From Lactobacillaceae bacterium (GTDB lineage Bacteria > Bacillota > Bacilli > Lactobacillales > Lactobacillaceae): a stretch of 64,000 nt of DNA. The notes under the pieces were generated by a model, which was given only the letters and a program-made list of their open reading frames with translations, did not search any database and had not been told where the DNA came from. Positions 42,624-64,000 of this stretch are shown here, piece by piece (position 1 is the first letter of the stretch; each line of letters opens with the position of its first letter). The stretch covers positions 17,455-81,454 of the forward strand of contig JAITDY010000057.1 of assembly GCA_031282325.1 (NCBI GenBank). The letters run 5' to 3'. A program made the position numbers and the translations under genes.

Positions 42624-45600
42624 TTAAAATCTTCTACTTTTAAGTGCGACCATCCCCAATGCCATTGCTAATCCCGATAAATTCAAAATTAGATTATCCT
42701 TTTGGTTATTAATTCCAGTTTTTGGCAATAAAGTGGTTTGCTTTTCGGTAACTGGATCAGGTAATACTATTTGTTTAAAAATATGGTGAATATTGCCATC
42801 GTTATCTATTTGTGTTTCAGTAAATGTATAATTTGGAAATTGATCATGACTTTGTTCGCCGTCTATCCAATTTTTCAAAATATTACCATCTATGTCTTGC
42901 CAAATCGTTTTAATTTTTGTATGGCTAATTACCGTATTTGAATTAATTTCTTCACCATTTAAAATTTCAATAAAGGTATTGGAAACATCACCAGTTTTAA
43001 TTCGTTTTGCTATTTGTTTTACACTCCAAGCAAAATTTGATAGTTGATCAGGTGATAAATTTTTCAAATAGTTCTCTGTCAGGCTATAACTATATTCTTG
43101 TGTTTGCTGATCGATTTCTCTTTTGATAAATTGGGAAATATCTTCACCCTTATTATTGAGTGCTGTGAAATTTCCAATTTCATCATATGCTAAATCAAAT
43201 TTATCTTTGATAATCCAAGAATTAATCACACCACCATAATTAGTTGGCGTTTTTGTTGAAGCTAAAATATACTCAAATTGCTCATTTAATTTAATTTCTT
43301 GTTCATTAAAATCTTGTCCATTTAAATTAATTGTTTTAATTGGATTTTGAATGTTTATTACATTTTTTACTGTATTAGTTTCATATTGATTTCCAAAGTC
43401 TACTTGAAATGCTGTATTTTCAACCTCAGCACCATCAACTGTTAAATTATTGATATCCATATTTAAGACCGCTTTTAATACTTGCCCGCCATACATAGCT
43501 AAAAAATCATTTACTTTAAAAATATTCCAAGTAGCTATTCCATTAACGTTTTCAAAATTCCCAAAATTAACTAAATTAATTTCTTGATTATTTTGATCCA
43601 AAATTTTATAGTTTTTTAAAGTTAAATTTACATCATCATAATCATCTTTTAATTGCATTCCTTTTTGTAAAGAATTTTCATCTTGCGAAGTAGCAGTTTT
43701 TAACCAATCAGTATAGTCAGACAAATCCCAGAGAATTTCATATTGTATTTCATCACTGATTAAAAGATTTTTATTATCAATATCTTCTCCATTAACGTTC
43801 ACGATTTTCTTTTGTTTTTCCTTTGTATTTGGATTATCTCCATCTTCATTTGGATTATCTTGATATGGATTTTCAATCACAGGATTAATAACTTCATTAG
43901 AGCTAATAACGCTATCATTTAATATTGTTTGGAAGGTATTTACAAGTTTTCCGCCATTATCATCGTTTAAAGAAACAACAACTGGAATAATAAAATCTTC
44001 AAAATTAAAAGTCTGTGTTTTATCTCGATTAATTAAATCGAGCATTACTGTATTTGCTGTATAAGTTATTGTTTGATTATCGAAAGTTACATTCCAATAA
44101 TCCGTATTTGCTTTTGATTGAATTTTATCTAGCGTGGTAATAACGCCATTAGGTAAAATATCTTGAATAACCAAACTATTAGTATCAGCTAATCTGTTTG
44201 CCTCTAGGGGATTATTCTTCAACACATAATTTAACTCTTCACCATTTACAACTTTTTTATTATTGACTGATATTCCATTGTCAATCACAACATCTTTTAA
44301 ATTACTCGTTGCTTGAAATAGATTGTACTCAATTGGTAATAGTTCAACTGTTTTTAAAACGCCTTGTTTGGGAATTTTGGGCAGAATCGGTGGAATATTT
44401 GGTGGTTGAGGTAATTGTGCTTTTGGAACTGGGGGAGTTGGTTCAATTGGTTTATCAATTAAAGGTAAAATCGGAAAATCGATTAAATCAGCATATCGAC
44501 CAATATAAGAGAGGGCAAAAGAAATACCGGAATATTCAATTGCTTCATTTTGAATTTTTTGCAAAACTTCATTTAAATCCGGCATTGCTTGTCGGTTGCT
44601 ACCGGGGTTATTGAAATCATAAGAAAAAATACTGGCATTTTCAATAAAGGAATAAATTGACTGATTAGGATTTTCATTGTTATCTGCAACACCTTGTGAT
44701 ATGTCCCACTTTCCGTCGCCAATAAAAATATTCTCTGAATTATTGCTAATTAAACCACCAATATATTGTGCCTTTAAATTTCCATCGGTTAAAAAATTAG
44801 ATACTTTTTGGTTACCGTCTAGATCACCTAATTCGGATAAAGAATTAATTTTGGCTGGAGTTCCGTCATCATAATAAAATTCATAAACAATTTTATAGGT
44901 ATTATCTTGGGTGATACCTGATGTGTATACCCAAGCCTTGGAATCAACACCAATTATAGCGTCCTCTTTTCCAATGTTAGAAATATTTAATTTTAGATTA
45001 ATATTTTGATGAGTTTTAGGATCAATTGATATATTTGTAAAATTAACTGTGGAATTTTGGCCTTGCCTTAGAATTTTAAATTCACTATTCCAACTTTTCC
45101 CTTTCACCCAGCCATCACCTAAATAAGTAACCTTACTAGAAGCACTATCTTTGTCACCTAAAGAAATAATATTGATATTACTTAAACCATTAATTTCATT
45201 GGCCGTTCCTACTGTCCATCTGCCATTATTTAGATCTAATTTTTCAAGATCTTTTATTATAGTGTTTTTAGCTTCTAATTCAGCATTTAGATAAGCAGAA
45301 ATTGTAGATTCATAATTATCGGATGCTATTGCATATGAGGCTTGATTATTTAAATACTTTAATTGAGCAGAGCTATCTGCAATTAAATCATTAGCATATG
45401 AATTCTGTGCGTTTTCGTATAAGATTAAAGACTTCTGATAAGCCAATGAATCAATTTGATATTGAGATAAACTAGTTTGATATTCTTGGCTTGCAACAAC
45501 GTTAGAAGATGCAACGGAAGCGTTGTAACTAGCAACGCTATTAATATTATTTTGATTTTGTTCTTTAATATTTAAAATTTGAGTATCTTGTTTTTGTTTT

Positions 45601-45917
45601 TGAATATCTAATTCGCTTTTACTAGAAACAATAACTATTCCATTGTTGGTAACTGAAGCACCATTGGTATCATTATTAATATTTTTTTCAATTTCGTTAT
45701 TTGCATTTAAAATATCGTTATTTAAATCTGAATTTTTGGCTGTTTCTTGAAAAGTAGTTATAACTGGATCTTGTACTATTTCATCAGCATTAGCAACTGT
45801 TCCACTAATTAAAGCCGAGGTCATTATTCCAGCAACACTAAATACACCAAAAATTGACGCTTTGATCCATGGCTTATTTTTTCTATAATCCGGTAAAATT
45901 ATTTTTTTATTGGTCAT
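42624..45917 (-). CDS. Antigen I/II (SspB)-like isopeptide-domain adhesin, LPKTG anchored
   Basis: Signal peptide; Tyr/Ala heptad A-like region; variable domain; Pro-rich P region (PIEPTPPVPK..); three C-type domains (DDYD, NTAFQVDFGN, KRIKTGDVSNTF); LPKTG-TM-KSRRF. Confidence 0.8.
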   Translation of the reverse strand: MTNKKIILPDYRKNKPWIKASIFGVFSVAGIMTSALISGTVANADEIVQDPVITTFQETAKNSDLNNDILNANNEIEKNINNDTNGASVTNNGIVIVSSKSELDIQKQKQDTQILNIKEQNQNNINSVASYNASVASSNVVASQEYQTSLSQYQIDSLAYQKSLILYENAQNSYANDLIADSSAQLKYLNNQASYAIASDNYESTISAYLNAELEAKNTIIKDLEKLDLNNGRWTVGTANEINGLSNINIISLGDKDSASSKVTYLGDGWVKGKSWNSEFKILRQGQNSTVNFTNISIDPKTHQNINLKLNISNIGKEDAIIGVDSKAWVYTSGITQDNTYKIVYEFYYDDGTPAKINSLSELGDLDGNQKVSNFLTDGNLKAQYIGGLISNNSENIFIGDGKWDISQGVADNNENPNQSIYSFIENASIFSYDFNNPGSNRQAMPDLNEVLQKIQNEAIEYSGISFALSYIGRYADLIDFPILPLIDKPIEPTPPVPKAQLPQPPNIPPILPKIPKQGVLKTVELLPIEYNLFQATSNLKDVVIDNGISVNNKKVVNGEELNYVLKNNPLEANRLADTNSLVIQDILPNGVITTLDKIQSKANTDYWNVTFDNQTITYTANTVMLDLINRDKTQTFNFEDFIIPVVVSLNDDNGGKLVNTFQTILNDSVISSNEVINPVIENPYQDNPNEDGDNPNTKEKQKKIVNVNGEDIDNKNLLISDEIQYEILWDLSDYTDWLKTATSQDENSLQKGMQLKDDYDDVNLTLKNYKILDQNNQEINLVNFGNFENVNGIATWNIFKVNDFLAMYGGQVLKAVLNMDINNLTVDGAEVENTAFQVDFGNQYETNTVKNVINIQNPIKTINLNGQDFNEQEIKLNEQFEYILASTKTPTNYGGVINSWIIKDKFDLAYDEIGNFTALNNKGEDISQFIKREIDQQTQEYSYSLTENYLKNLSPDQLSNFAWSVKQIAKRIKTGDVSNTFIEILNGEEINSNTVISHTKIKTIWQDIDGNILKNWIDGEQSHDQFPNYTFTETQIDNDGNIHHIFKQIVLPDPVTEKQTTLLPKTGINNQKDNLILNLSGLAMALGMVALKSRRF

Positions 45918-53648: not shown

Positions 53649-56600
53649 TTATTTATTTTTCTTTGTCTTTTTTTCTTTAGTTGACTCAATAAAAATAGTA
53701 AAGGCAAGAGCTATAAAAGCAATATTAAAGCTTAATTGCTGAGTTCTTCCAGTTTTTGGAAGTTCAACGGCTTTTTTATTTGTAGTAGTGCCCAATTCGA
53801 GATTTTCATTAGTCTTTGAAGCGTTTGTCGTAGATTCTTTATTTTCTTCATTAGGAATAGAATTTTGGTTTGTAATCTCATCATTGTTTTTCTTTTCAAC
53901 AACTTTCGTTTGTTCCCAATTAGAATCAGTCGTTAATGTTTTTCCATTCGCATCAACCCAATTTCCATAAACAATATTACCGTCTTGATCAATTGTTTTA
54001 GAACGCGTATAAACAACTTTTTCAACCAAATCTTCACCCGCTTTTTGACCGTTTTGATCCACAAAATGGGTAGTATGAGTAAATGTTTGCGTTTCTAAAT
54101 CTGTTACGTTTATTGAACGGTTTTCATAAACAGGTACCACTGGTTTATCGTCTGTTGGCGTTTCAGTTGGTTTAGAAGCTGGAAATGGATTTTCCCACGT
54201 AATTGTTTTATCTTTACTTCTAGTTTGAGTATAATTCCAAGTTGTAAAAGTAAGGCTTTCTTTATTATCATCAGCTGATACTGTATAGGTAAAGTTTCCA
54301 TTTTCGTCTACAGTTACTGGATTTTCATTTTGATCAAAAATCAAATTCGTGGCTAAATTAGTATTTCCAATAATAGTTACTGTATTATCATCATTAACAA
54401 CTACTGAAATAACTTGTGTGTCTTCAGCTTCACGAACTGGCTTATTTTCCGCGTCGGCATTTGCAAAAATTGCATAATAGGTTTCATCTTGGTTTGGTTT
54501 TGAAATATTTGGATCGATTGTAATTCCATGAGAATTTTCAAAGTGATCGAATACAAATCCAGCCTTAGCTACCGGTTTGGGAATGCTATTTGCCGGACTG
54601 CCCAATTGAACTGTTTGCTGATCTGCATCAATACTTCCAGCATTAGTATCTACCACGTCAAATGATAAATTAAACGTACGGTTAGAATCATTATTTAGGT
54701 CGACGATAACAGGCATAAATTGGCTTGAACCAGCACTAAACAAATATTGTATTTGACTAGGCGTTCCTGTTCCAACCCACTTTGCAATTCCGGTTACAGT
54801 ATTGTACTCCCAATCATTATTATCAATAATTTGATAATTTCCAGCATAGCCTGCTCCCGGAACGTCTACAAACTTAATATTATCTTTGCCGACAACGTCA
54901 GTAAGATTAACATAATACTGTCCATCAACTTCATACATTTTAGAGTCGGTAGTTTGATAAGTGGAATTACCAAATTGATGATTAATAGCAATATTAGTAG
55001 TTAAATCTAGCGTGGTTAAGTTATTTCCGCTTAAATCATATCCAGATAAATAAATATTGTCAGCTAAATCAATATTTACTAATTTATTATTCGAAGCAGT
55101 CAAAACACTTAAATTAGTATCACCATTGACTAACAAATCGGTTAATTGATTATTGTCTGCTTGCACAAATGATAATGATTGATAGTTACTAAAATCTAAT
55201 TGGCTTAATTGATTACCAGACAAAATGGCAACTGATAAATTGGGCATCAATGGTATTTTATTACCATTTTCATCAGTAACTTGTAAGTTTAATTCAGTAA
55301 GGCTGTCGTTAGACAATGCTATACTTTGTAGATTTTTATTATTAGATAAATCAACACTAGTTAATTCCGGAATATCTGAAGCCGTGAAGTTTAATAAATT
55401 ACTTCCTGCTTGTTTTAATGTATTCGATACATCACTAATTGCTGTTCCTGAAATAGCTAAACTTTGAAGATTATATAAATCATTAGGCAATTCATTTAAC
55501 CCACTATTATTATTTAGATTTAGTGTTCTTAAATTATAGCCAATATTGCCAATTTCAAAGCCTTCACTAGTTAGCGCGTCACCAAACAACGATAGCGTTT
55601 CTAATTGATATAAATTAGAAACATCGAGTTTACTTAAGTTTTCATCATTGTAGGCATACAAACTGACTAAATTATCATTCTGACTCAAATCTAAATTAGT
55701 TAATTCCGGTAATTTAGAAGCACTTAAATAAGTTAATTCTGTGCTTAAAGAAGTATTGACTGTATCTAAATTAGGCAAATTATACAAAATTAATTGGTCC
55801 AAATTAGCATTGGTTTTTACTGATTTCACAGCTGTTGAACCACTTAAAATATCGTTCCCATCCGAATGATTACCCGATATTTGAAGCGAAGTTAAAGCTG
55901 GAAAATCAGATACATCAATGTCAGTAACATCATTACCTAAAATGTCTGCTGTGATACTTTGCAATTTTGGTAATTTAGATAATGGTGACCAATCTTGTAC
56001 GTCACTGCCCGAAATATCTAAATTAGTTAAATTAAAGAAATACTGTAATCCTTCATAATTTTCAATATTCAAAGATTTTTTCAATGTTAAACTAGTGAAT
56101 TGTCCAGCAAAATCATAGGTTAATTTATTGGTTGGTACACCGTCATTGCCAAGTTGCATTTGATAAAGAATTTCATTTCTTAGGTTTTCATCTGGGATAG
56201 TATTTTTATCAATTGTAATTGGGTATTGATTTTCAAATAAGGCCTTATTAATTTGATCAATTGCATCATTGTAGGCGGTGTCAACATCAACCTTGGCTTG
56301 ATCAAAATCATCATATACATTCAAAGTGACCGCATTAATTGCTGAAGTAGCTTGGTTTAATAATTCCGTTTTTTGTTGGTCACTCAAATTAGAGCTATCT
56401 AGAATTTTAGATAGTTGTTTAATTTTATTTTCTTTATATTCTGCTAAGCTAGCTACATTTTTGTCGTGTTGCAATGCTTGCAAAACATCTGAAGCCTTAG
56501 TGCGTGCATCGTTAAGTGCTTTAGCAATATCGCTTTGGCTATCTAGGGTTGAAAGGGTACTGGTTAAATCAGCAACCCATTGATCTTTTGTTGCACGATC

Positions 56601-59600
56601 AATTGAATCAAATGAAGGTGAATTAATATAATCATTAAATGATGCCAAAGCCTTGTTTCTTAAATTAACTGGATCATTTTGGGATGCCACTGTTTTTTTC
56701 ACAAGCAGGTCGACTGGTCCGCCATTTGAGAAGAACTCCGTTTGCAAACTATAAACTCCATCGGCGCTAGTTTCTTGGGACAATTCTTGACGGAACTGTT
56801 CAATTAAAGTATCGATTTGTTCAGGAGTTAATAATTGCGAATACGATTGTGGATGATTGTCAACAACAGTCATACCATAATTTAAAGTTCCAATTATTTG
56901 TGTTAAGACACTTTGGGCAGCTGTTTTAACCTCATCACTTTGATTGCCAACTTCTACGATTGTAGAACTGTAATCTAGTGACAACAAGTTTGCCTTATTG
57001 TCAGTTAAATCTTTAATTCCACCAACAAATCCAACTGCTTTTGCATCAACTAGATTTGGACCAAATGATTTTTTAGCTAATTGCTTATTCAAGGATACAG
57101 TTGGACTTTCTAATTTGCCAATATTTTCAGCTAAATTAGATAAGGCAGGCGAGTATAAATTAAAAGCAATAAAACTCAAAGTTAGGGAACTAAATTGCTT
57201 TAATTTATTTTTCTTATATCCAGCTAAAATAAATAACACCAATAAGAAGAAGGCTAAATCACCTGCTAATTCAAGTTCATTAATTAACTCTGTATTTTCA
57301 CCCGTTTTTGGTAATTCCTTATTAGATTGATTGGAATTAGTCGTTGCAAGAACTGCTGGTGTATTGGCTTGAGTTTTATCTTTAGTAGTAACTGATATTA
57401 ACGATTGACCATTAGCGGAAGTAGTAGAACTATTTTTGTTACTCAACCAAGAATCTAAATTGCCAGTCGCACTAGAAGAACCATTAGTGTTTAATATTGT
57501 TTTCGGTAAAACAAAACTACTTGTAAAATCATTAACATCACTTAAAACAGTAATAGTTAATGTATCAAAAACACCAGCTAATTTATCTGTTATTGTAATT
57601 GTGGCTTTACCTGGATTTTTAGCGGTAACTTTACCATTTAAATCAACATCTACTACATTATTATCTGATGATGAAAAAGATAATTGATCGTTAGAAGCAT
57701 ATGTCGGAGTGATATTAGTGGTTATTTTAGCCGTTTTGCCAACTTCTAATTTATAAGAATCAAGGCTAGCGGTAATTTTAACTGGTGTAATTGTGTGTTT
57801 TTCAATCACATAATTTTGTACCTCGCCCGCATTTCCCGCTGTATCTTTAGATCTATATTGCAAATTAACAGGTGCATCTAATTCCAAAGCACCGGTATAC
57901 TGTTTCCATGTTTTGCCATTATCCAAAGAATACTCAATTGAAGTAATTGACTTTTCTAAATCAGAAATATCATCATTTAAACCTAGTTGAAGTTGATGTT
58001 TATTTGAATCAGCTACTTGTTTATCACTTACAACCTTAGCCTGACTAGCAACTGCTTTATAAATATTAGTAACATCATGTTTAACAATTTCCGAGTCATT
58101 ACCAAACTTATCAGTTTCTTTAAAATAAACTGTTCCATTTGAAGGTAAAGAAACATCACTTAGATACGGTACAAAGGTGGTTCCATCCAAGCTATAAGAT
58201 AAAATATCGTCTGGGTTGGCAACTTTGGCTGAAACATTTACTGATTTATTAGTTGGAGTTGTAATATCTTGAGCAACAATCGGACTAGCTGCTTTGGCTA
58301 CGGAATAATGTACTCGAATCGTTTTGGTAACTTTGTTTCCCATTTTATCAACAACAGTTACATTAAAAGTATTATCTGTTTTATCTTTAGAAGTATCTAA
58401 AGCAAATTGATGATCAAAATCTGCAGAGGCCATATTTTCAACTAAAAACGAATTATCCCATGCGGCCCCAGCGGTTCTTAAAACAACATCTGAATTGATT
58501 CTTAGTGAGTATCCGTCTAAATTATCATTAGCCGTTCCTTGCAAGTTAAATGTGGGCTGATTGGTATAAACATCATAAGAAGTTCCGTCATCCGAAGTAC
58601 TCCATTGATCGCCAATATTGAAATTAACACTTGGATCTTGGCTATCAACATATAAAGCAAACATGCTTGTATTGGTTGCAAAAGTTCCGTCAGTTAATTT
58701 TTGGCTAAAATCATATTTAATTTTTAAATTATTATTGGAAACAGAAGTATCGTTAAAACTAGTTCCGTCTGCATTAGTAGCAAGTCCTAATGGCACATCA
58801 TAAGTAAAACTTCCGTCAGCATTAACAACTGGTTTATTTCTTGGATCGTTGGGATCTTGACTATAACCATAAATGACTAAATCTTTAGCATCATTTGGAT
58901 CTAATTTTCCGCGAACCGTATAGGTATTAGCTTCTTTATTAAAATCATCATCCCCAGATGAAGTCACATAACTAGTGCCCTCATCTGCAATGTTGTCCCA
59001 GCGAAGATAGGTATCATCATATTTATAAACAACTGCCAATTCCGGTTGTGATGGTATTAGCGTTTGCCCATTAATACCACCTTTTTTAATTGCAAAAATA
59101 TTGTATTGATTAGTGCCAGTTTCCGGAGTAATCGTAGCACTCCAAGTGTGGGCAGCCGGATCTTTCACAACTTTACTCGTTTGGTCTACCCAATCACTGT
59201 CATTATTTTCGTTATAAGACTGTAATGAGACATCAAAAGAATCATCACTATAAGTTCCTTTAAAAGTTACCGTTCCGTCTTCGTTTTCGTCGTAATCAAC
59301 TACACGAGTATTATCATCATCTAGCCCTGAAGCCTCTTTGTCTAGCGTAATGGTTGGAACTAAATTAAAGGCAAAATTAAATTCTTGGATTGGGCGTTGC
59401 AAGTTTGGATCAAGCGTAAAATACAATTTTTTAGTTTCATCTGAAACTGGGACGTTAGCAATAAAACTACCAATTTCATCAACATTAACTTTAGTAAAAT
59501 TTTTACCATCACTACTAATATAAAAATCACGTGGAAAATATCCTTGGATAGAATAAGTCTTATTTTTTGGATCATAGTAAGGCGAAGTAACATCAGTTTC

Positions 59601-62600
59601 TTCTTCATAGTTTGAAACGTTATAAACAATCAAACCATTATTCATATCATCAGCTTGTCCCAATGAAACTTTTTCTTGACTTGCAGAAAAATTATGAGCA
59701 TTATCAAAAATAGAAGCTTGAACATCATTGGCCCCGTTTTTTACGGCAGCTGCTTGCTTGGCGTTTAATTTAATTTTAAAATTCGAAGGATCAATTTTAG
59801 TTGTTGCTTGCGTTTTATCGCCCAAGCCAATACGATCTTCTGGTGTTAAATCTGTTAAATCATAAGCACTCAACACACCATTAATTGAAAAAGACATATA
59901 AGTAAGATCACTGAAGCCAGAAGTTGCATCGGTTGCAGAACCAGTTACATAAACATCACCATTACTATCTTTTTGCAATCCCAGATTTTTAATTACTGGT
60001 TTAGTAGTATCCACTATTACTGATAAATCTAAAGTTTGTGGCTTAGCATCAGGATAATCCGGAGTTGCTGTTACACGATAAGTATATGTTCCATCTGGGG
60101 CAACCTTTGTTTGTCCGGTTGCCGGATCGGAAATTTTACCATCCCAAGTAGACGAAACGGTAATATAGTTTACTTGCGATCCGTCTTCTGTTGACCATGT
60201 TTTAGTATAGCCATTATCTTTATTTAACTCTCTTACAACATTTCCCTTGCTGTCTAAAATATCAATATTTAAGCTGGATACATTTCTCAACAAATAAATA
60301 TTTGGAATAACCGCGTCCCAATCATCGTCGCCATTAGGAGAAAAAGCAACGTGACTTGGATCGATATATTTAGCTAAATCAGCAATATTACCAGAAAAAG
60401 TTCCAGAACTATAAAGGCTGTTTAATTCGTTTAATCCTAAATCTAGACCTGAAGGGATGCTGGAATCATAATCGTAAAAGAATTGTCCACCAAAAATAGA
60501 ATCATAATCACCGTTTTGGTCTTTGTGCCAAGCTGGCTGATCGAAAACTGGTAAATTAGCATAATCACCGTAAAAACCAGCATAAGGGACATTTAAATCA
60601 ACCAATCCAGATTCTGAATTAACAGGAGTAAAGCCTAGAAAACCTTCTACGAATTGATTTGCCTTACTTCCAGTAACGTCTAAAGTGAAGGTAACATCTA
60701 AAGAACTATTAGCTGGGACAGTAAATTGATTTTGATTTGTCGTTATTGAAGCATTCTTTAAATATTCATCGTATTTTAAGCCACTATCGTCTTGTGCTTC
60801 ATGCAAAACCCCGCCGTAATCATTAAATTGATAACTAGCGTCTTGCTTGCCATTATTTGTAAAGGTTAAAGTAAATTCAGTTTTGTCGCCAACTTCTTTT
60901 AAAGCTACCGTTCCAAGACCATTTTTATCTTTCACAGTCACTAAATTAGCAATTGCATTATCTACTTGAATTAATCCAGATCCTTGTTGGCGAGGAGAAA
61001 AATAACTATTGTGTGCTGAATCAAAAACTGGTTTGGCTGTATTAATTACCGCCAATTTAGCTGTATTAACCAAATCTAAACCTTTTAAATCCACGCCTAA
61101 ATTACGATAATTTTCTACCAATAAAGCCATTGACCCTGCTACGAAAGGTGCAGCCATGGAGGTACCACTCATGTTTTGATATCCACCATCATCTGTACCA
61201 GTGGCATTAGTAGTAGACCAAACATTGCCCCCAACACCTGATATTTCTGGTTTGAAATCTAGCGAGGGTGTCAATCCATACGATGAAAATGATGAAATTT
61301 TTCCTGCATCTGGATTAGCAATAGTTTTATCAGCGAAATTTTTAAAATTCAAAGTTATGTTTGAACCATATTTTTCTAATTGTTGGGAAATTATTTTCCA
61401 TGTTTCAGGACTTACTTCCATAGTAGGAATATCAACTGAAGTGAAACTAAGAGAATCTAATCCGGGCTTATTGTTAACAATAATAACAGCCTTTGCGCCA
61501 GCACTTAAAGCAGCGGATTGCTTTTCAGAGAAATTATTAATTCCTCGACTGATCACCACAATTTTTCCAGAAACATTTAAATCATTGCCTTTTGCGTCCT
61601 TAAAATCTCCAGCAAATCCACGGCCGGGCATTCCTGTTGCAACTGGATTATTATAGGCATCAGCATTATTTTTATCATTAGTAGCATTATCTGGTAGTAC
61701 TACTAATTGACCACTATTGATTGTTTTATCAAATCCATTAGCACCAAAATAAACAAGTCCTTTTAAATCATCAACATCAACATCGTTTTGATTAGCATAT
61801 TCTTCTTTTCCGGTTTTGGCCAAATTCAAAGAAATGTCGTAGGCTTTAGTCACCATTGTTTGATTTTCAGCGCTGGCTACTGCAAGAGCACTTGGCGTTA
61901 CTGAAGGAGAACCAATGATTGCTTCATCGATATTCGAGTATGTGGAAGTTGTAGAAAATCCGTTTTGAGAAGAAACTACTCCAGAGTTTCCTGCTGAAAT
62001 AACTGGAATAACCCCTGCTTTTGCCGCTTGTTCAACAGCAGCCATTTCTGCATTTCCAAATGATGCATCAGTCGAACCAGCTTCACGTCCCAATGACATA
62101 TTGATTACATCTGCACCTAAGGTAACAGCATCTTGGATTGCCATGATAACTGCATCGGTATCAACATTGGAATAAATATTTGGAAAAACTTTTAAATCTA
62201 AAATCTGCGCTTCTGGAGCAACTCCTTTAATTGAATCAACATTATTAGCATTATCACCATTGGCGCCGATAATTCCAGCAACGTGTTGCCCGTGCATCAC
62301 ACCAGAAGAATCTTTTACGGCTCCGTCTTGAGAATCACCATCAGAATAGTTGTAGGCAAAAGGAACTTTATCGCTTTTCCATTCACCACGGCCTAAAGCC
62401 TTAATTTTATTTTCAGCATCAGTTTTAGAAATTTTAACTTTAGTAGGATCTGTTAACTTAAAATCCTTGTGTTCATAATCGACTCCAGAATCAATAACAG
62501 CAACAACTGTTCCCTCACCTTTTAATTCTCTATTTTGCCAAACACTATCAATTTGAGAAAGTTGGTTAGCTGCTGTATCTAATAAATGATAAGTTGAAGC

Positions 62601-63155
62601 TGGATCAACACTAGCAACACCATCTAATTGATAAATTGCCTCTAAATCACTTACCTTTGCATCAATTGAAAAACCGTTCACTAAATAACCGTAATCATTA
62701 ATTACTTTATTGCCGGTTAATTCTTCTACTTGTGAAACGATACCTGCATGCGAATCTAAAACTTTTTCTTCAGCTTTTTGAATTCCTTTAATACTTTGAG
62801 AAGTACCGTCAGCTTCTGGAGTATTAGTTTTGTTTACAGCAGATTGTTCCTTTAAATTCACGAAAACTTTAACTGTTTTCTTTTGTAAATCTTGATCAGA
62901 TAAATTTTGTGCATCGTAACCTTGTGCAATTAAATAATTTTTAGCAGCCGAATTCCATTGTGCTTGTTGTTGACTAGCACTTTGATTTTTAATTTTATCT
63001 AAACTACTTGCTATTTCTTTTTTTACATTTTTAGATACTTTACTGGTATCTGCAAATGTCGTGACATCATTAATTGTATTTGCAATGGCAGACACGCTTA
63101 ATGAAGTTAGTAAAAAGATTGATTCAAATTTTTTATTTTTTCTCATTGTCTTCAC
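53649..63155 (-). CDS. Giant cell-envelope S8 proteinase (lactocepin/PrtP-like) fused in frame to an LRR adhesin; two LPKTG sorting signals
   Basis: Signal + I9 propeptide; triad VIDSG, HGQHVAG, GTSMAAP; PA, Fn3/A and B domains, Big_2; internal LPKTG (res 1948)-TM-KKNKLK; helical region, LRRs, InlB B-repeat-like, Muc_B2-like; terminal LPKTG (res 3132)-TM-basic tail. Confidence 0.88.
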   Translation of the reverse strand: MKTMRKNKKFESIFLLTSLSVSAIANTINDVTTFADTSKVSKNVKKEIASSLDKIKNQSASQQQAQWNSAAKNYLIAQGYDAQNLSDQDLQKKTVKVFVNLKEQSAVNKTNTPEADGTSQSIKGIQKAEEKVLDSHAGIVSQVEELTGNKVINDYGYLVNGFSIDAKVSDLEAIYQLDGVASVDPASTYHLLDTAANQLSQIDSVWQNRELKGEGTVVAVIDSGVDYEHKDFKLTDPTKVKISKTDAENKIKALGRGEWKSDKVPFAYNYSDGDSQDGAVKDSSGVMHGQHVAGIIGANGDNANNVDSIKGVAPEAQILDLKVFPNIYSNVDTDAVIMAIQDAVTLGADVINMSLGREAGSTDASFGNAEMAAVEQAAKAGVIPVISAGNSGVVSSQNGFSTTSTYSNIDEAIIGSPSVTPSALAVASAENQTMVTKAYDISLNLAKTGKEEYANQNDVDVDDLKGLVYFGANGFDKTINSGQLVVLPDNATNDKNNADAYNNPVATGMPGRGFAGDFKDAKGNDLNVSGKIVVISRGINNFSEKQSAALSAGAKAVIIVNNKPGLDSLSFTSVDIPTMEVSPETWKIISQQLEKYGSNITLNFKNFADKTIANPDAGKISSFSSYGLTPSLDFKPEISGVGGNVWSTTNATGTDDGGYQNMSGTSMAAPFVAGSMALLVENYRNLGVDLKGLDLVNTAKLAVINTAKPVFDSAHNSYFSPRQQGSGLIQVDNAIANLVTVKDKNGLGTVALKEVGDKTEFTLTFTNNGKQDASYQFNDYGGVLHEAQDDSGLKYDEYLKNASITTNQNQFTVPANSSLDVTFTLDVTGSKANQFVEGFLGFTPVNSESGLVDLNVPYAGFYGDYANLPVFDQPAWHKDQNGDYDSIFGGQFFYDYDSSIPSGLDLGLNELNSLYSSGTFSGNIADLAKYIDPSHVAFSPNGDDDWDAVIPNIYLLRNVSSLNIDILDSKGNVVRELNKDNGYTKTWSTEDGSQVNYITVSSTWDGKISDPATGQTKVAPDGTYTYRVTATPDYPDAKPQTLDLSVIVDTTKPVIKNLGLQKDSNGDVYVTGSATDATSGFSDLTYMSFSINGVLSAYDLTDLTPEDRIGLGDKTQATTKIDPSNFKIKLNAKQAAAVKNGANDVQASIFDNAHNFSASQEKVSLGQADDMNNGLIVYNVSNYEEETDVTSPYYDPKNKTYSIQGYFPRDFYISSDGKNFTKVNVDEIGSFIANVPVSDETKKLYFTLDPNLQRPIQEFNFAFNLVPTITLDKEASGLDDDNTRVVDYDENEDGTVTFKGTYSDDSFDVSLQSYNENNDSDWVDQTSKVVKDPAAHTWSATITPETGTNQYNIFAIKKGGINGQTLIPSQPELAVVYKYDDTYLRWDNIADEGTSYVTSSGDDDFNKEANTYTVRGKLDPNDAKDLVIYGYSQDPNDPRNKPVVNADGSFTYDVPLGLATNADGTSFNDTSVSNNNLKIKYDFSQKLTDGTFATNTSMFALYVDSQDPSVNFNIGDQWSTSDDGTSYDVYTNQPTFNLQGTANDNLDGYSLRINSDVVLRTAGAAWDNSFLVENMASADFDHQFALDTSKDKTDNTFNVTVVDKMGNKVTKTIRVHYSVAKAASPIVAQDITTPTNKSVNVSAKVANPDDILSYSLDGTTFVPYLSDVSLPSNGTVYFKETDKFGNDSEIVKHDVTNIYKAVASQAKVVSDKQVADSNKHQLQLGLNDDISDLEKSITSIEYSLDNGKTWKQYTGALELDAPVNLQYRSKDTAGNAGEVQNYVIEKHTITPVKITASLDSYKLEVGKTAKITTNITPTYASNDQLSFSSSDNNVVDVDLNGKVTAKNPGKATITITDKLAGVFDTLTITVLSDVNDFTSSFVLPKTILNTNGSSSATGNLDSWLSNKNSSTTSANGQSLISVTTKDKTQANTPAVLATTNSNQSNKELPKTGENTELINELELAGDLAFFLLVLFILAGYKKNKLKQFSSLTLSFIAFNLYSPALSNLAENIGKLESPTVSLNKQLAKKSFGPNLVDAKAVGFVGGIKDLTDNKANLLSLDYSSTIVEVGNQSDEVKTAAQSVLTQIIGTLNYGMTVVDNHPQSYSQLLTPEQIDTLIEQFRQELSQETSADGVYSLQTEFFSNGGPVDLLVKKTVASQNDPVNLRNKALASFNDYINSPSFDSIDRATKDQWVADLTSTLSTLDSQSDIAKALNDARTKASDVLQALQHDKNVASLAEYKENKIKQLSKILDSSNLSDQQKTELLNQATSAINAVTLNVYDDFDQAKVDVDTAYNDAIDQINKALFENQYPITIDKNTIPDENLRNEILYQMQLGNDGVPTNKLTYDFAGQFTSLTLKKSLNIENYEGLQYFFNLTNLDISGSDVQDWSPLSKLPKLQSITADILGNDVTDIDVSDFPALTSLQISGNHSDGNDILSGSTAVKSVKTNANLDQLILYNLPNLDTVNTSLSTELTYLSASKLPELTNLDLSQNDNLVSLYAYNDENLSKLDVSNLYQLETLSLFGDALTSEGFEIGNIGYNLRTLNLNNNSGLNELPNDLYNLQSLAISGTAISDVSNTLKQAGSNLLNFTASDIPELTSVDLSNNKNLQSIALSNDSLTELNLQVTDENGNKIPLMPNLSVAILSGNQLSQLDFSNYQSLSFVQADNNQLTDLLVNGDTNLSVLTASNNKLVNIDLADNIYLSGYDLSGNNLTTLDLTTNIAINHQFGNSTYQTTDSKMYEVDGQYYVNLTDVVGKDNIKFVDVPGAGYAGNYQIIDNNDWEYNTVTGIAKWVGTGTPSQIQYLFSAGSSQFMPVIVDLNNDSNRTFNLSFDVVDTNAGSIDADQQTVQLGSPANSIPKPVAKAGFVFDHFENSHGITIDPNISKPNQDETYYAIFANADAENKPVREAEDTQVISVVVNDDNTVTIIGNTNLATNLIFDQNENPVTVDENGNFTYTVSADDNKESLTFTTWNYTQTRSKDKTITWENPFPASKPTETPTDDKPVVPVYENRSINVTDLETQTFTHTTHFVDQNGQKAGEDLVEKVVYTRSKTIDQDGNIVYGNWVDANGKTLTTDSNWEQTKVVEKKNNDEITNQNSIPNEENKESTTNASKTNENLELGTTTNKKAVELPKTGRTQQLSFNIAFIALAFTIFIESTKEKKTKKNK

Positions 63156-63267: not shown

Positions 63268-64000
63268 ATGAATTTATATGGGAATTATTTTAAAAAAATT
63301 AGAAAAAGACGTGGTTTTACTTTAAAGCAGGTTTCAAATGGAATCGTTCCACCTTCATCAATTTCACGTTTTGAAAATGGTGAATCAGATATGTATTTTG
63401 GTAACGTGGTCTCAGCATTAGGACACATGGGAAGTTCTTTAGAGGAGTTATTGACTGAATTAGATGAATTAAATGATGCTTATTATATCGATTCAATTAA
63501 ATTAATCATTTCAGAACAAAACGTTAAAAAATTAATTACTATTAAAAATCACCATATTAGTATGTTTGAAGTCGCTAATAATCCTTTAGATGCAGCACTT
63601 TATAAATTAGCAAGAATTCATATTAATCATTTACAAAATATTAAAATTAATCAAAGTGATTTAGATGATTTAAACGATTTTTTATTTGCAAGTGAGGATT
63701 GGGGCGAATTTGAATATTATATTTTTGGTATTATTGCTGAATTTTTAAATACCAAAACATTAATTAATTACTCGGAAAATATTTTTTATGGTGAGAAAAA
63801 ATTTAGATTAAGCTCAATTTCTGATGTCGCTCTATCGTCTGTTTTACATACTATTTTTTTATTAATTATTCGTAACGAAATTACCAATGCAAAATATTTT
63901 TTAGATAATATTGAACAAATTACGATTAATGCAGATATCTTATCTGATCGTATTATTTATTCTTTTTATCGTGAAATTACTGAATATAAAATAAGGGATC
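63268..64000 (+). CDS. Rgg/GadR/MutR-family transcriptional regulator (3' end outside window)
   Basis: Not in ORF track. Manual translation MNLYGNYFKKIRKRRGFTLKQVSNGIVPPSSISRFENGESD (XRE HTH), later LNDFLFASEDWGEFEYYIFG (Rgg C-domain pattern); TATAAT at 63197-63202. Confidence 0.88.
   Translation, partial: MNLYGNYFKKIRKRRGFTLKQVSNGIVPPSSISRFENGESDMYFGNVVSALGHMGSSLEELLTELDELNDAYYIDSIKLIISEQNVKKLITIKNHHISMFEVANNPLDAALYKLARIHINHLQNIKINQSDLDDLNDFLFASEDWGEFEYYIFGIIAEFLNTKTLINYSENIFYGEKKFRLSSISDVALSSVLHTIFLLIIRNEITNAKYFLDNIEQITINADILSDRIIYSFYREITEYKIRD

Follow-up and report, generated by a model that had tools for sequence, protein, structure and literature searches.

The window analysed here, a stretch of 64,000 nucleotides from a Lactobacillaceae bacterium of the termite gut, carries on its reverse strand a giant open reading frame (ORF) of 3168 codons, called P0001 below, in which a cell-envelope proteinase (CEP) runs without interruption into an adhesin made of leucine-rich repeats (LRRs) and a Muc_B2-like domain. 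The source genome is a metagenome-assembled genome (MAG) that is 65% complete, lies in 72 contigs and was assembled at a depth of about 7x. The frame opens with GTG, has an AGGA ribosome-binding site 7 nt upstream, and is free of stop codons across the junction of its two halves, where its translation reads NSNQSNKELPKTGENTELINELELAGDLAFFLLVLFILAGYKKNKLKQFSSLTLSFIAFNLYSPALSNLAENIGK, or in longer form NKELPKTGENTELINELELAGDLAFFLLVLFILAGYKKNKLKQFSSLTLSFIAFNLYSPALSNLAENIGK. Central to this analysis is the junction itself, at which an LPKTG sorting motif, a hydrophobic segment and a basic cluster are followed at once by a second hydrophobic segment resembling a signal peptide. The features of the frame are given below from the N-terminus to the C-terminus, each with its evidence; hydrophobicity was taken from Kyte-Doolittle windows of 19 or 12 residues, signal peptidase sites were located by the (-3,-1) rule, and an arrow marks the predicted cleavage point.

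53649..63155, reverse strand: whole ORF, 3168 aa, CEP plus LRR/Muc_B2 adhesin (ORF listing, translation)
63051..63155, reverse strand: N-terminal signal peptide, aa 1-35, MRKNKK-FESIFLLTSLSVSAIA...TTFA↓DT (translation, (-3,-1)-rule sites)
62583..62774, reverse strand: Inhibitor_I9 propeptide, aa 128-191 (Pfam E 3.4e-4, 21.7 bits against a cut-off of 21.2)
61026..62519, reverse strand: Peptidase_S8 (PF00082) catalytic domain, aa 213-710 (Pfam E 4.4e-48)
60582..60908, reverse strand: Fn3-like A domain (fn3_5), aa 750-858 (Pfam E 6.1e-19)
57579..57788, reverse strand: Big_2 Ig-like domain, aa 1790-1859 (Pfam E 8.5e-11)
57315..57578, reverse strand: Ser/Thr/Asn-rich, W-like wall spacer, aa 1860-1947, 88 aa (translation; published W-domain lengths)
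57300..57314, reverse strand: internal LPKTG, aa 1948-1952 (translation, sorting-signal scan)
57216..57275, reverse strand: hydrophobic segment 1 (TM1), aa 1961-1980, LELAGDLAFFLLVLFILAGY (Kyte-Doolittle, alignment with the relative G005 described below)
57198..57215, reverse strand: basic cluster KKNKLK, aa 1981-1986, presumed cytoplasmic loop (translation)
57129..57197, reverse strand: hydrophobic segment 2, signal-peptide-like, aa 1987-2009, QFSSLTLSFIAFNLYSPALSNLA (alignment, Kyte-Doolittle)
56166..57128, reverse strand: helical region of no known family, aa 2010-2330, about 320 aa (no Pfam match; AlphaFold2 helices)
54975..56129, reverse strand: LRR array, about aa 2343-2727 (LRR_4, Pfam E 9.3e-10)
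53937..54095, reverse strand: Muc_B2-like domain, aa 3021-3073 (Pfam 17-19 bits, below the 23.5-bit cut-off)
53748..53762, reverse strand: C-terminal LPKTG, aa 3132-3136 (translation, sorting-signal scan)
53652..53747, reverse strand: C-terminal hydrophobic segment and basic, Lys-rich tail, RTQQLSFNIAFIALAFTIFIESTKEKKTKKNK (translation, Kyte-Doolittle)

Judged by its sequence, the part of the protein up to residue 1986 is a complete lactocepin-type CEP, spacer and anchor included, and residues 1987-3168 read as an LRR/Muc_B2 adhesin with a signal-peptide-like start and its own LPKTG sorting signal at the end. The S8 domain carries a PA insert (aa 515-583, Pfam E 5e-11) together with the Asp/His/Ser motifs VAVIDSG, HGQHVAG and GTSMAAP, and full-length similarity to lactocepins and PrtB places B-type domains after fn3_5, up to about residue 1790. 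An earlier sequence-only reading of this DNA had put LPKTG motifs at 57300-57314 and 53748-53762 in a frame lacking a stop at the junction, and translation confirmed all of these coordinates. Its account of the second half held in part: the LRRs were recovered by Pfam, but the Muc_B2 match stayed below its cut-off and the proposed B-repeat was not recovered by Pfam. AlphaFold2 models the helical region as helices, with confidence in its last third only. The wall spacer also contains a partial motif, LPKTI, within FVLPKTILNTNG (aa 1888-1892, window 57480-57494), 60 residues ahead of the internal LPKTG; it lacks the Gly, is followed by no hydrophobic segment, and is probably there by chance.

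The internal sorting element resembles those that end other proteins of the same genome. TM1 has a Kyte-Doolittle value of 2.17 over 19 residues and 3.31 over 12, and its core free of charged and amide residues is 14 residues long, which is typical of sorting signals. A scan of all ORFs of the source genome for LPxT[GASN] ahead of a hydrophobic stretch recovered LPKTGE, LPQTGE, LPSTGE, LPKTGI, LPATGK and LPKTGK, and the canonical signals all lie 31-41 aa from the end of their protein. Only one complete non-terminal element with a basic cluster emerged, namely the internal element of P0001; the remaining non-terminal matches fall in spurious ORFs or have no basic cluster. Both sorting elements of P0001 consist of LPXTG, a hydrophobic segment and a basic tail, and the distance from Leu1948 to the end of KKNK is 37 residues, just as the terminal signal lies 37 aa from the end. 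Since this span falls within the genome's own range, the internal element has the motif and the length of a working signal, and departs from the canonical position only in lying 1221 aa from the C-terminus. Moreover, among 242 fetched homologues of either half, the internal LPXTG-TM-basic element occurs in P0001 alone, and an internal TM-type segment in P0001 and its orthologue in G005 only.

The segment that follows was proposed in the sequence-only reading to be a Sec signal peptide cut near NLA↓E. Its basic n-region (KKNKLK) and a single rule-obeying site, ALS↓N after S2006, agree with a signal peptide, but its h-region is weak. As the candidate for cleavage by signal peptidase I we take ALS↓N, since no other site near segment 2 satisfies the (-3,-1) rule; NLA↓E, with Asn at -3, is less likely. 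An AlphaFold2 model of aa 1925-2340, made with no alignment, shows both segments as helices at a mean pLDDT of 56.6, falling below 50 over the hairpin, and was left out of the reasoning on topology. No terminator was found at the junction, promoter-like matches there are at chance expectation, and the GC content is even along the whole ORF. Separate translation of the second half was considered and dropped, given that the only in-frame TTG and GTG codons in the vicinity are separated from AGGTGA by 16 and 19 nt, too distant for a good ribosome-binding site.

Is the fused frame genuine? The junction stretch is present in a termite-gut metagenome run, where a Logan contig of 6006 nt (depth 7.2) spans window positions 56000-58030 with 0 differences and 0 gaps, probably built from the same reads as the window. 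Two other runs of the same study (X2 and X3) do not cover the junction and yielded two short unrelated pieces only, and no RNA run is among those listed for the stretch. The more compelling evidence comes from a MAG of another species of the same genus, Lactobacillaceae bacterium Hm464_bin9 (JAISIV010000126.1, here G005), which repeats the join as protease, TM1, RKKK, TM2 and helical domain in one frame within one contig. Its first contig holds a 2202-residue frame, open to the contig end, in which the protease is followed by KAEKAKSSIFLLIADLIFILSFAILLVLYRKKKLVQTASLFMIGLVSFNLYQPIAVLASLK and then by about 100 residues with homology to the opening of the second half of P0001; a second contig resumes about 24 residues later with the remaining adhesin, whose C-terminus consists of LPQTG, a hydrophobic segment and RRKN. 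Identity between the two species is 57% in the protease, about 41% at the junction and 49% in the adhesin. Because the same join stands in two species so divergent, neither a chimeric assembly nor a lost stop can account for it, and because identity is only 41-57%, the join has survived a long divergence. On this comparison, the joining of protease and adhesin is real and evolutionarily retained.

What has been retained, and what has not, can be read from the same alignment. The hairpin core is kept in G005 as DLxFxL...Y[KR]KxKLxQxxSL...FNLYxP, and in both species a (-3,-1)-rule site lies 20-25 residues past the basic cluster and 4-6 past a conserved Pro, the counterpart of ALS↓N being VLA↓S after A2100. 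G005 has a longer TM1 with a Kyte-Doolittle value of 3.01 against 2.17 here, and its TM2 reaches 1.72 against 1.13, both over 19 residues. Its adhesin part gives an LRR_EndoS match in Pfam, and the orthologue fragment (P0004) scores 40.5 bits for Muc_B2. A third relative of the adhesin half, P0005 (JGI metagenome 3300042599, L012 37-3099), is truncated at its 5' end by the contig start; it is uninformative on the junction because its ORF runs off that start. The C-terminus of P0005 has a hydrophobic segment and a basic tail without LPXTG, and the sequence suggests that the adhesin of this lineage may be membrane-anchored instead of wall-anchored.

The claim that the protein carries two sortase substrates thus stands for this species, where both LPKTG signals are present, but does not extend to its relatives. 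As the internal LPXTG is absent from G005 and the terminal one from P0005, conservation does not extend to the dual sortase-substrate design; what is conserved is the two-segment membrane hairpin with the fused order of modules, sortase use at either end being apparently variable. G005 probably relies on the membrane hairpin to retain its protease. An LPXTG anchor is a common ending of stand-alone CEPs, and the de novo appearance of a whole sorting signal is improbable, so that the internal LPKTG would most simply be ancestral, kept here and lost in G005, an order of events suggested by two sequences. A complete genome of the same genus (G007) encodes a stand-alone CEP of 1873 aa (L035 1560-7181) whose anchor deviates from the canonical LPXTG: its C-terminus reads FPATA, a hydrophobic stretch and KKIKR, another sign of easily changing anchor motifs in the genus.

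The family is narrowly distributed. A query of the junction and helical region found it in 2 of 401 Lactobacillaceae species genomes and 2 of 9 genomes of the genus, both of them incomplete MAGs of termite-gut type, and in none of the 6 near-complete genomes of the genus. A phmmer search with aa 1900-2330 against 1.84 billion representatives returned only the protein itself with its relatives G005 and P0005. Further, a word-indexed search with the junction, two metagenome pattern scans and a scan of the species genomes of GTDB yielded nothing beyond the protein itself, two fragments from G005 and P0005, and no usable match to the helical region emerged among structural look-alikes in the ESM Atlas. 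Outside these relatives, matches to the adhesin half are confined to the LRR array, where they are LRR proteins. No stand-alone orthologue of the adhesin half was found in the homologue search, and the stand-alone CEPs of two genomes of the same genus (G007 and G004) have no LRR gene downstream.

How might such a protein reach the surface? Sortase cleaves LPXTG between Thr and Gly and links the product to peptidoglycan, and a membrane-retained LPXTG just outside the bilayer is its normal substrate geometry. The source genome encodes a sortase (PF04203, 92.6 bits, contig C53) and a signal peptidase I (PF10502). The N-terminal signal peptide would start Sec export of the protease, TM1 would act as a stop-transfer segment, and KKNKLK would remain in the cytoplasm by the positive-inside rule; the basic cluster lies between the two hydrophobic segments, as an out-in-out hairpin needs. 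Segment 2 would then insert with TM1 as a helical hairpin and restart export of the adhesin, leaving both large modules outside. Helical-hairpin insertion is established, and a strongly hydrophobic partner such as TM1 could offset the weakness of segment 2, which would have to restart export because the LRR/Muc_B2 module ends in a sorting signal that acts outside and has no other export signal. In this species sortase would cut both LPKTG motifs and link each module to peptidoglycan, and signal peptidase I may make a further cut behind segment 2, with ALS↓N as the likeliest site, freeing the adhesin from the hairpin. Either cut alone would part the two modules. One transcript and one translation would in this way give a wall-anchored protease and a wall-anchored adhesin. 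We put at about 60% the probability that the precursor does come apart into a protease and an adhesin that are each linked to the wall.

Several observations weigh against such a split. With Kyte-Doolittle values of 1.13 over 19 residues and 1.39 over 12, segment 2 has a low hydrophobicity and falls short of the protein's own N-terminal signal peptide (1.41 and 2.17); its power to restart export is an assumption of the scheme. The internal element falls under the Pfam cut-off for Gram_pos_anchor (PF00746), with 17.2 against 20 bits. Moreover, G005 has no LPXTG-like motif before TM1, about 16 residues corresponding to LPKTG and its spacer being missing; because the internal LPXTG is lacking in the only other known junction, the lineage can do without a sortase cut at this site, which in P0001 could be a vestige. 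The junction is known from only two sequences, both from incomplete MAGs, with the G005 gene divided over two contig ends and about 24 residues unassembled, and the Logan contig, a second assembly probably made from the same reads or sample as the window, is not independent of it. Finally, that the gene arose from two neighbours which became fused is a guess, as no relative with the two genes separate was found.

Three other explanations were weighed. The protein could remain a single chain, with an uncut two-helix hairpin in its middle, the internal LPKTG a relic and the wall linked at the C-terminus only. The motifless junction of G005, with its longer and more hydrophobic segments (3.01 and 1.72) like those of a stable hairpin, the conservation of the hairpin and not of the motif, and the sub-threshold PF00746 score would all suit this view. 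However, the internal element is indistinguishable from the genome's working-type sorting signals and has a geometry normal for sortase, the 14-residue core of TM1 is what a sorting signal typically has, and a Pro followed by a small-residue site past segment 2 occurs in both species, as it does in the Zmp proteases compared below; we consider an uncut chain unlikely. A cut by sortase only would leave segment 2 as an uncleaved signal-anchor, so that the adhesin would be tied to the membrane at its N-terminus and to the wall at its C-terminus, forming a loop across the wall. The completeness of the internal sorting signal fits such a cut, as do the Asn at -3 of NLA↓E and the presence of just one rule-obeying site (ALS↓N) behind a weak h-region, but a doubly tied adhesin would display poorly, and the retention in both species of a Pro with a small -1 residue 4-6 positions later resembles the second signal-peptidase site of Zmp. 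This arrangement appears improbable.

That the frame is an artefact or a dead fusion, whether a chimeric assembly, a stop lost by sequencing error or a recent deletion with an unexpressed second half, is very improbable indeed. The completeness, fragmentation and depth of the MAG invite the suspicion, and the Lys-rich AAGAAAAATAAA could promote slippage or a mis-join; yet the same join lies inside one contig of a different species at 41-57% identity, a contig from a second assembler crosses the junction and agrees at every position, neither half is broken anywhere in the 3168 codons, whose GC content is uniform, and the database gene call P0002 reads across the junction as well. Splitting into two wall-linked products remains the reading that we prefer.

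The surroundings of the gene deserve mention. One neighbour lies divergently upstream:

63268..63999, forward strand: Rgg-type HTH regulator, cut by the window end (Rgg_C 1.5e-15)

A divergent Rgg-type regulator stands upstream of the gene in G005 also (L010 6664-7548, forward strand; Rgg_C 1e-18), and the giant gene may be under peptide-pheromone control of the Rgg/SHP type. In the lactococcal prtP locus this divergent upstream position is occupied by the maturase PrtM, unlike here. The public database call of the same gene (P0002) has 2430 aa and begins at residue 739 of the ORF; it omits the signal peptide and the S8 catalytic domain while still reading across the junction, and the gene is probably mis-annotated in public records. 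Another LPXTG surface protein of the window, at 42624-45917 on the reverse strand (1097 aa), has the C-terminal end LLPKTGINNQKDNLILNLSGLAMALGMVALKSRRF.

If the proposed processing is real, a sorting signal and a signal peptide together form a cut-and-anchor linker that joins two large surface proteins, and a single gene would bring protease and adhesin to the wall jointly, one for one. It would represent a new architecture within the well-studied lactocepin family, would carry the Zmp/IgA1 protease model over from a small tether at the N-terminus to a precursor with two genuine products, and would suggest how two proteins might be displayed on lactic acid bacteria from a single construct. Should the linker reading hold true, it would point to a general and unrecognised route for the fusion of surface-protein genes in Gram-positive bacteria. 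Further, the loss of either LPXTG in relatives that keep the hairpin offers a natural series on the replacement of wall by membrane anchoring. The practical weight is limited, the family being known from two or three uncultured termite-gut bacteria.

How does P0001 compare with the systems already described? Its protease half shares with the lactocepin/PrtP CEPs (PrtP, PrtB, PrtH, PrtS, PrtR) the I9 propeptide, the S8 domain with PA insert, the Fn3-like A domain, the B-type domains, the W spacer and the anchor (AN). Residues 1-1985 match stand-alone CEPs, among them proteins of 1750-2000 aa, at 31-43% identity over 82-90% of the length. The matches include lactocepin, PrtB-type S8 peptidases of Lactobacillus delbrueckii and proteins from Lacticaseibacillus, Enterococcus, Carnobacterium and Periweissella, the named lactocepins and S8 peptidases aligning over about 88-90%. 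All 119 fetched protease homologues are stand-alone proteins of about 1480-2020 aa, barring the G005 orthologue; many stand-alone CEPs end in LPXTG-TM-basic, others in SlpA or ChW-type domains. Published CEPs have a W spacer of 69-94 residues followed by an AN anchor of LPXTG, a hydrophobic region and charged residues, and end at an AN or SlpA attachment domain or have none (PMC10535647). It is because the 88-residue spacer of P0001 and the AN-type element after it match this architecture that the first 1986 residues count as a complete CEP. Unlike in the known CEPs, the AN-type element of P0001 (aa 1948-1986) is internal and followed by 1182 further residues; the protein passes every domain test of a CEP but the rule that the anchor ends the protein.

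The adhesin half finds its likeness in the internalin-like LPXTG adhesins of Firmicutes with LRR and MucBP-type domains, with which it shares an LRR array, a Muc_B2-like domain and a C-terminal LPXTG; a MucBP-domain protein of Listeria seeligeri is among its weak matches. It differs from them in that its export signal is internal and in having no detectable orthologue outside the LRRs beyond G005 and P0005.

The junction is best compared with that of the Zmp/IgA1 proteases, the streptococcal M26 zinc metalloproteases IgA1 protease/ZmpA, ZmpB, ZmpC and ZmpD, in which an LPXTG in the N-terminal part is accompanied by two hydrophobic segments and by a further signal-peptidase site (PMC3518915, citing Bender and Weiser 2006), the LPXTG being reported as required for proper localisation (PMC3518915; PMC7939560). 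Genomes of the same order supplied three Zmp ORFs, which show LPxTG, TM, KK(H/K)xKK, TM, Pro and then AA↓LQ or AFA↓MD, with readings such as LPQTG-SQEVG-LFGLSLATASFAVLLLS-KKHRKK-VMGVLLIGAMGQSLLLPVEVAA↓LQ and LPHTG...VVSKKKKNK-ILGAILFTTAGMATFIPSTAFA↓MD; together with the published account (PMC3518915), they show that the comparison with this hairpin drawn in the sequence-only reading was accurate. The junction of P0001 has the same order of parts, including a short spacer after the LPxTG and a Pro a few residues before a small-residue site, and the proposed logic is the same, with sortase acting on the upstream part and the second segment exporting the downstream part in the manner of another signal peptide. 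The Zmp module lies about 85-110 residues from the N-terminus, with its LPXTG at residue 85-108 and a small upstream peptide, against residue 1948 and a protease of 1947 residues in P0001, and the three Zmp proteins examined have no C-terminal LPXTG, whereas the downstream module of P0001 has one. Peptidase_M26 (PF07580) has no match in the source genome, and the only peptidase that Pfam finds in P0001 is S8.

Sequence-only reading had also held the architecture to be undescribed. Within the papers that could be searched, no published protein with two complete sorting signals and no CEP fused in this manner was found, the Zmp papers being the only relevant returns, but the order of parts at the junction does match the published Zmp module. 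P0001 is not a member of the Zmp family, and its junction appears to work like that of Zmp; the likeness lies in the order of parts, with no sequence homology claimed, and is probably convergent. The fullest version of the proposal, in which a polyprotein linker that arose independently of the Zmp module directs double Sec export and, through sortase with or without signal peptidase I, yields two wall-anchored products at 1:1 and in the same place, is a tentative one to which we give somewhat less than an even chance.

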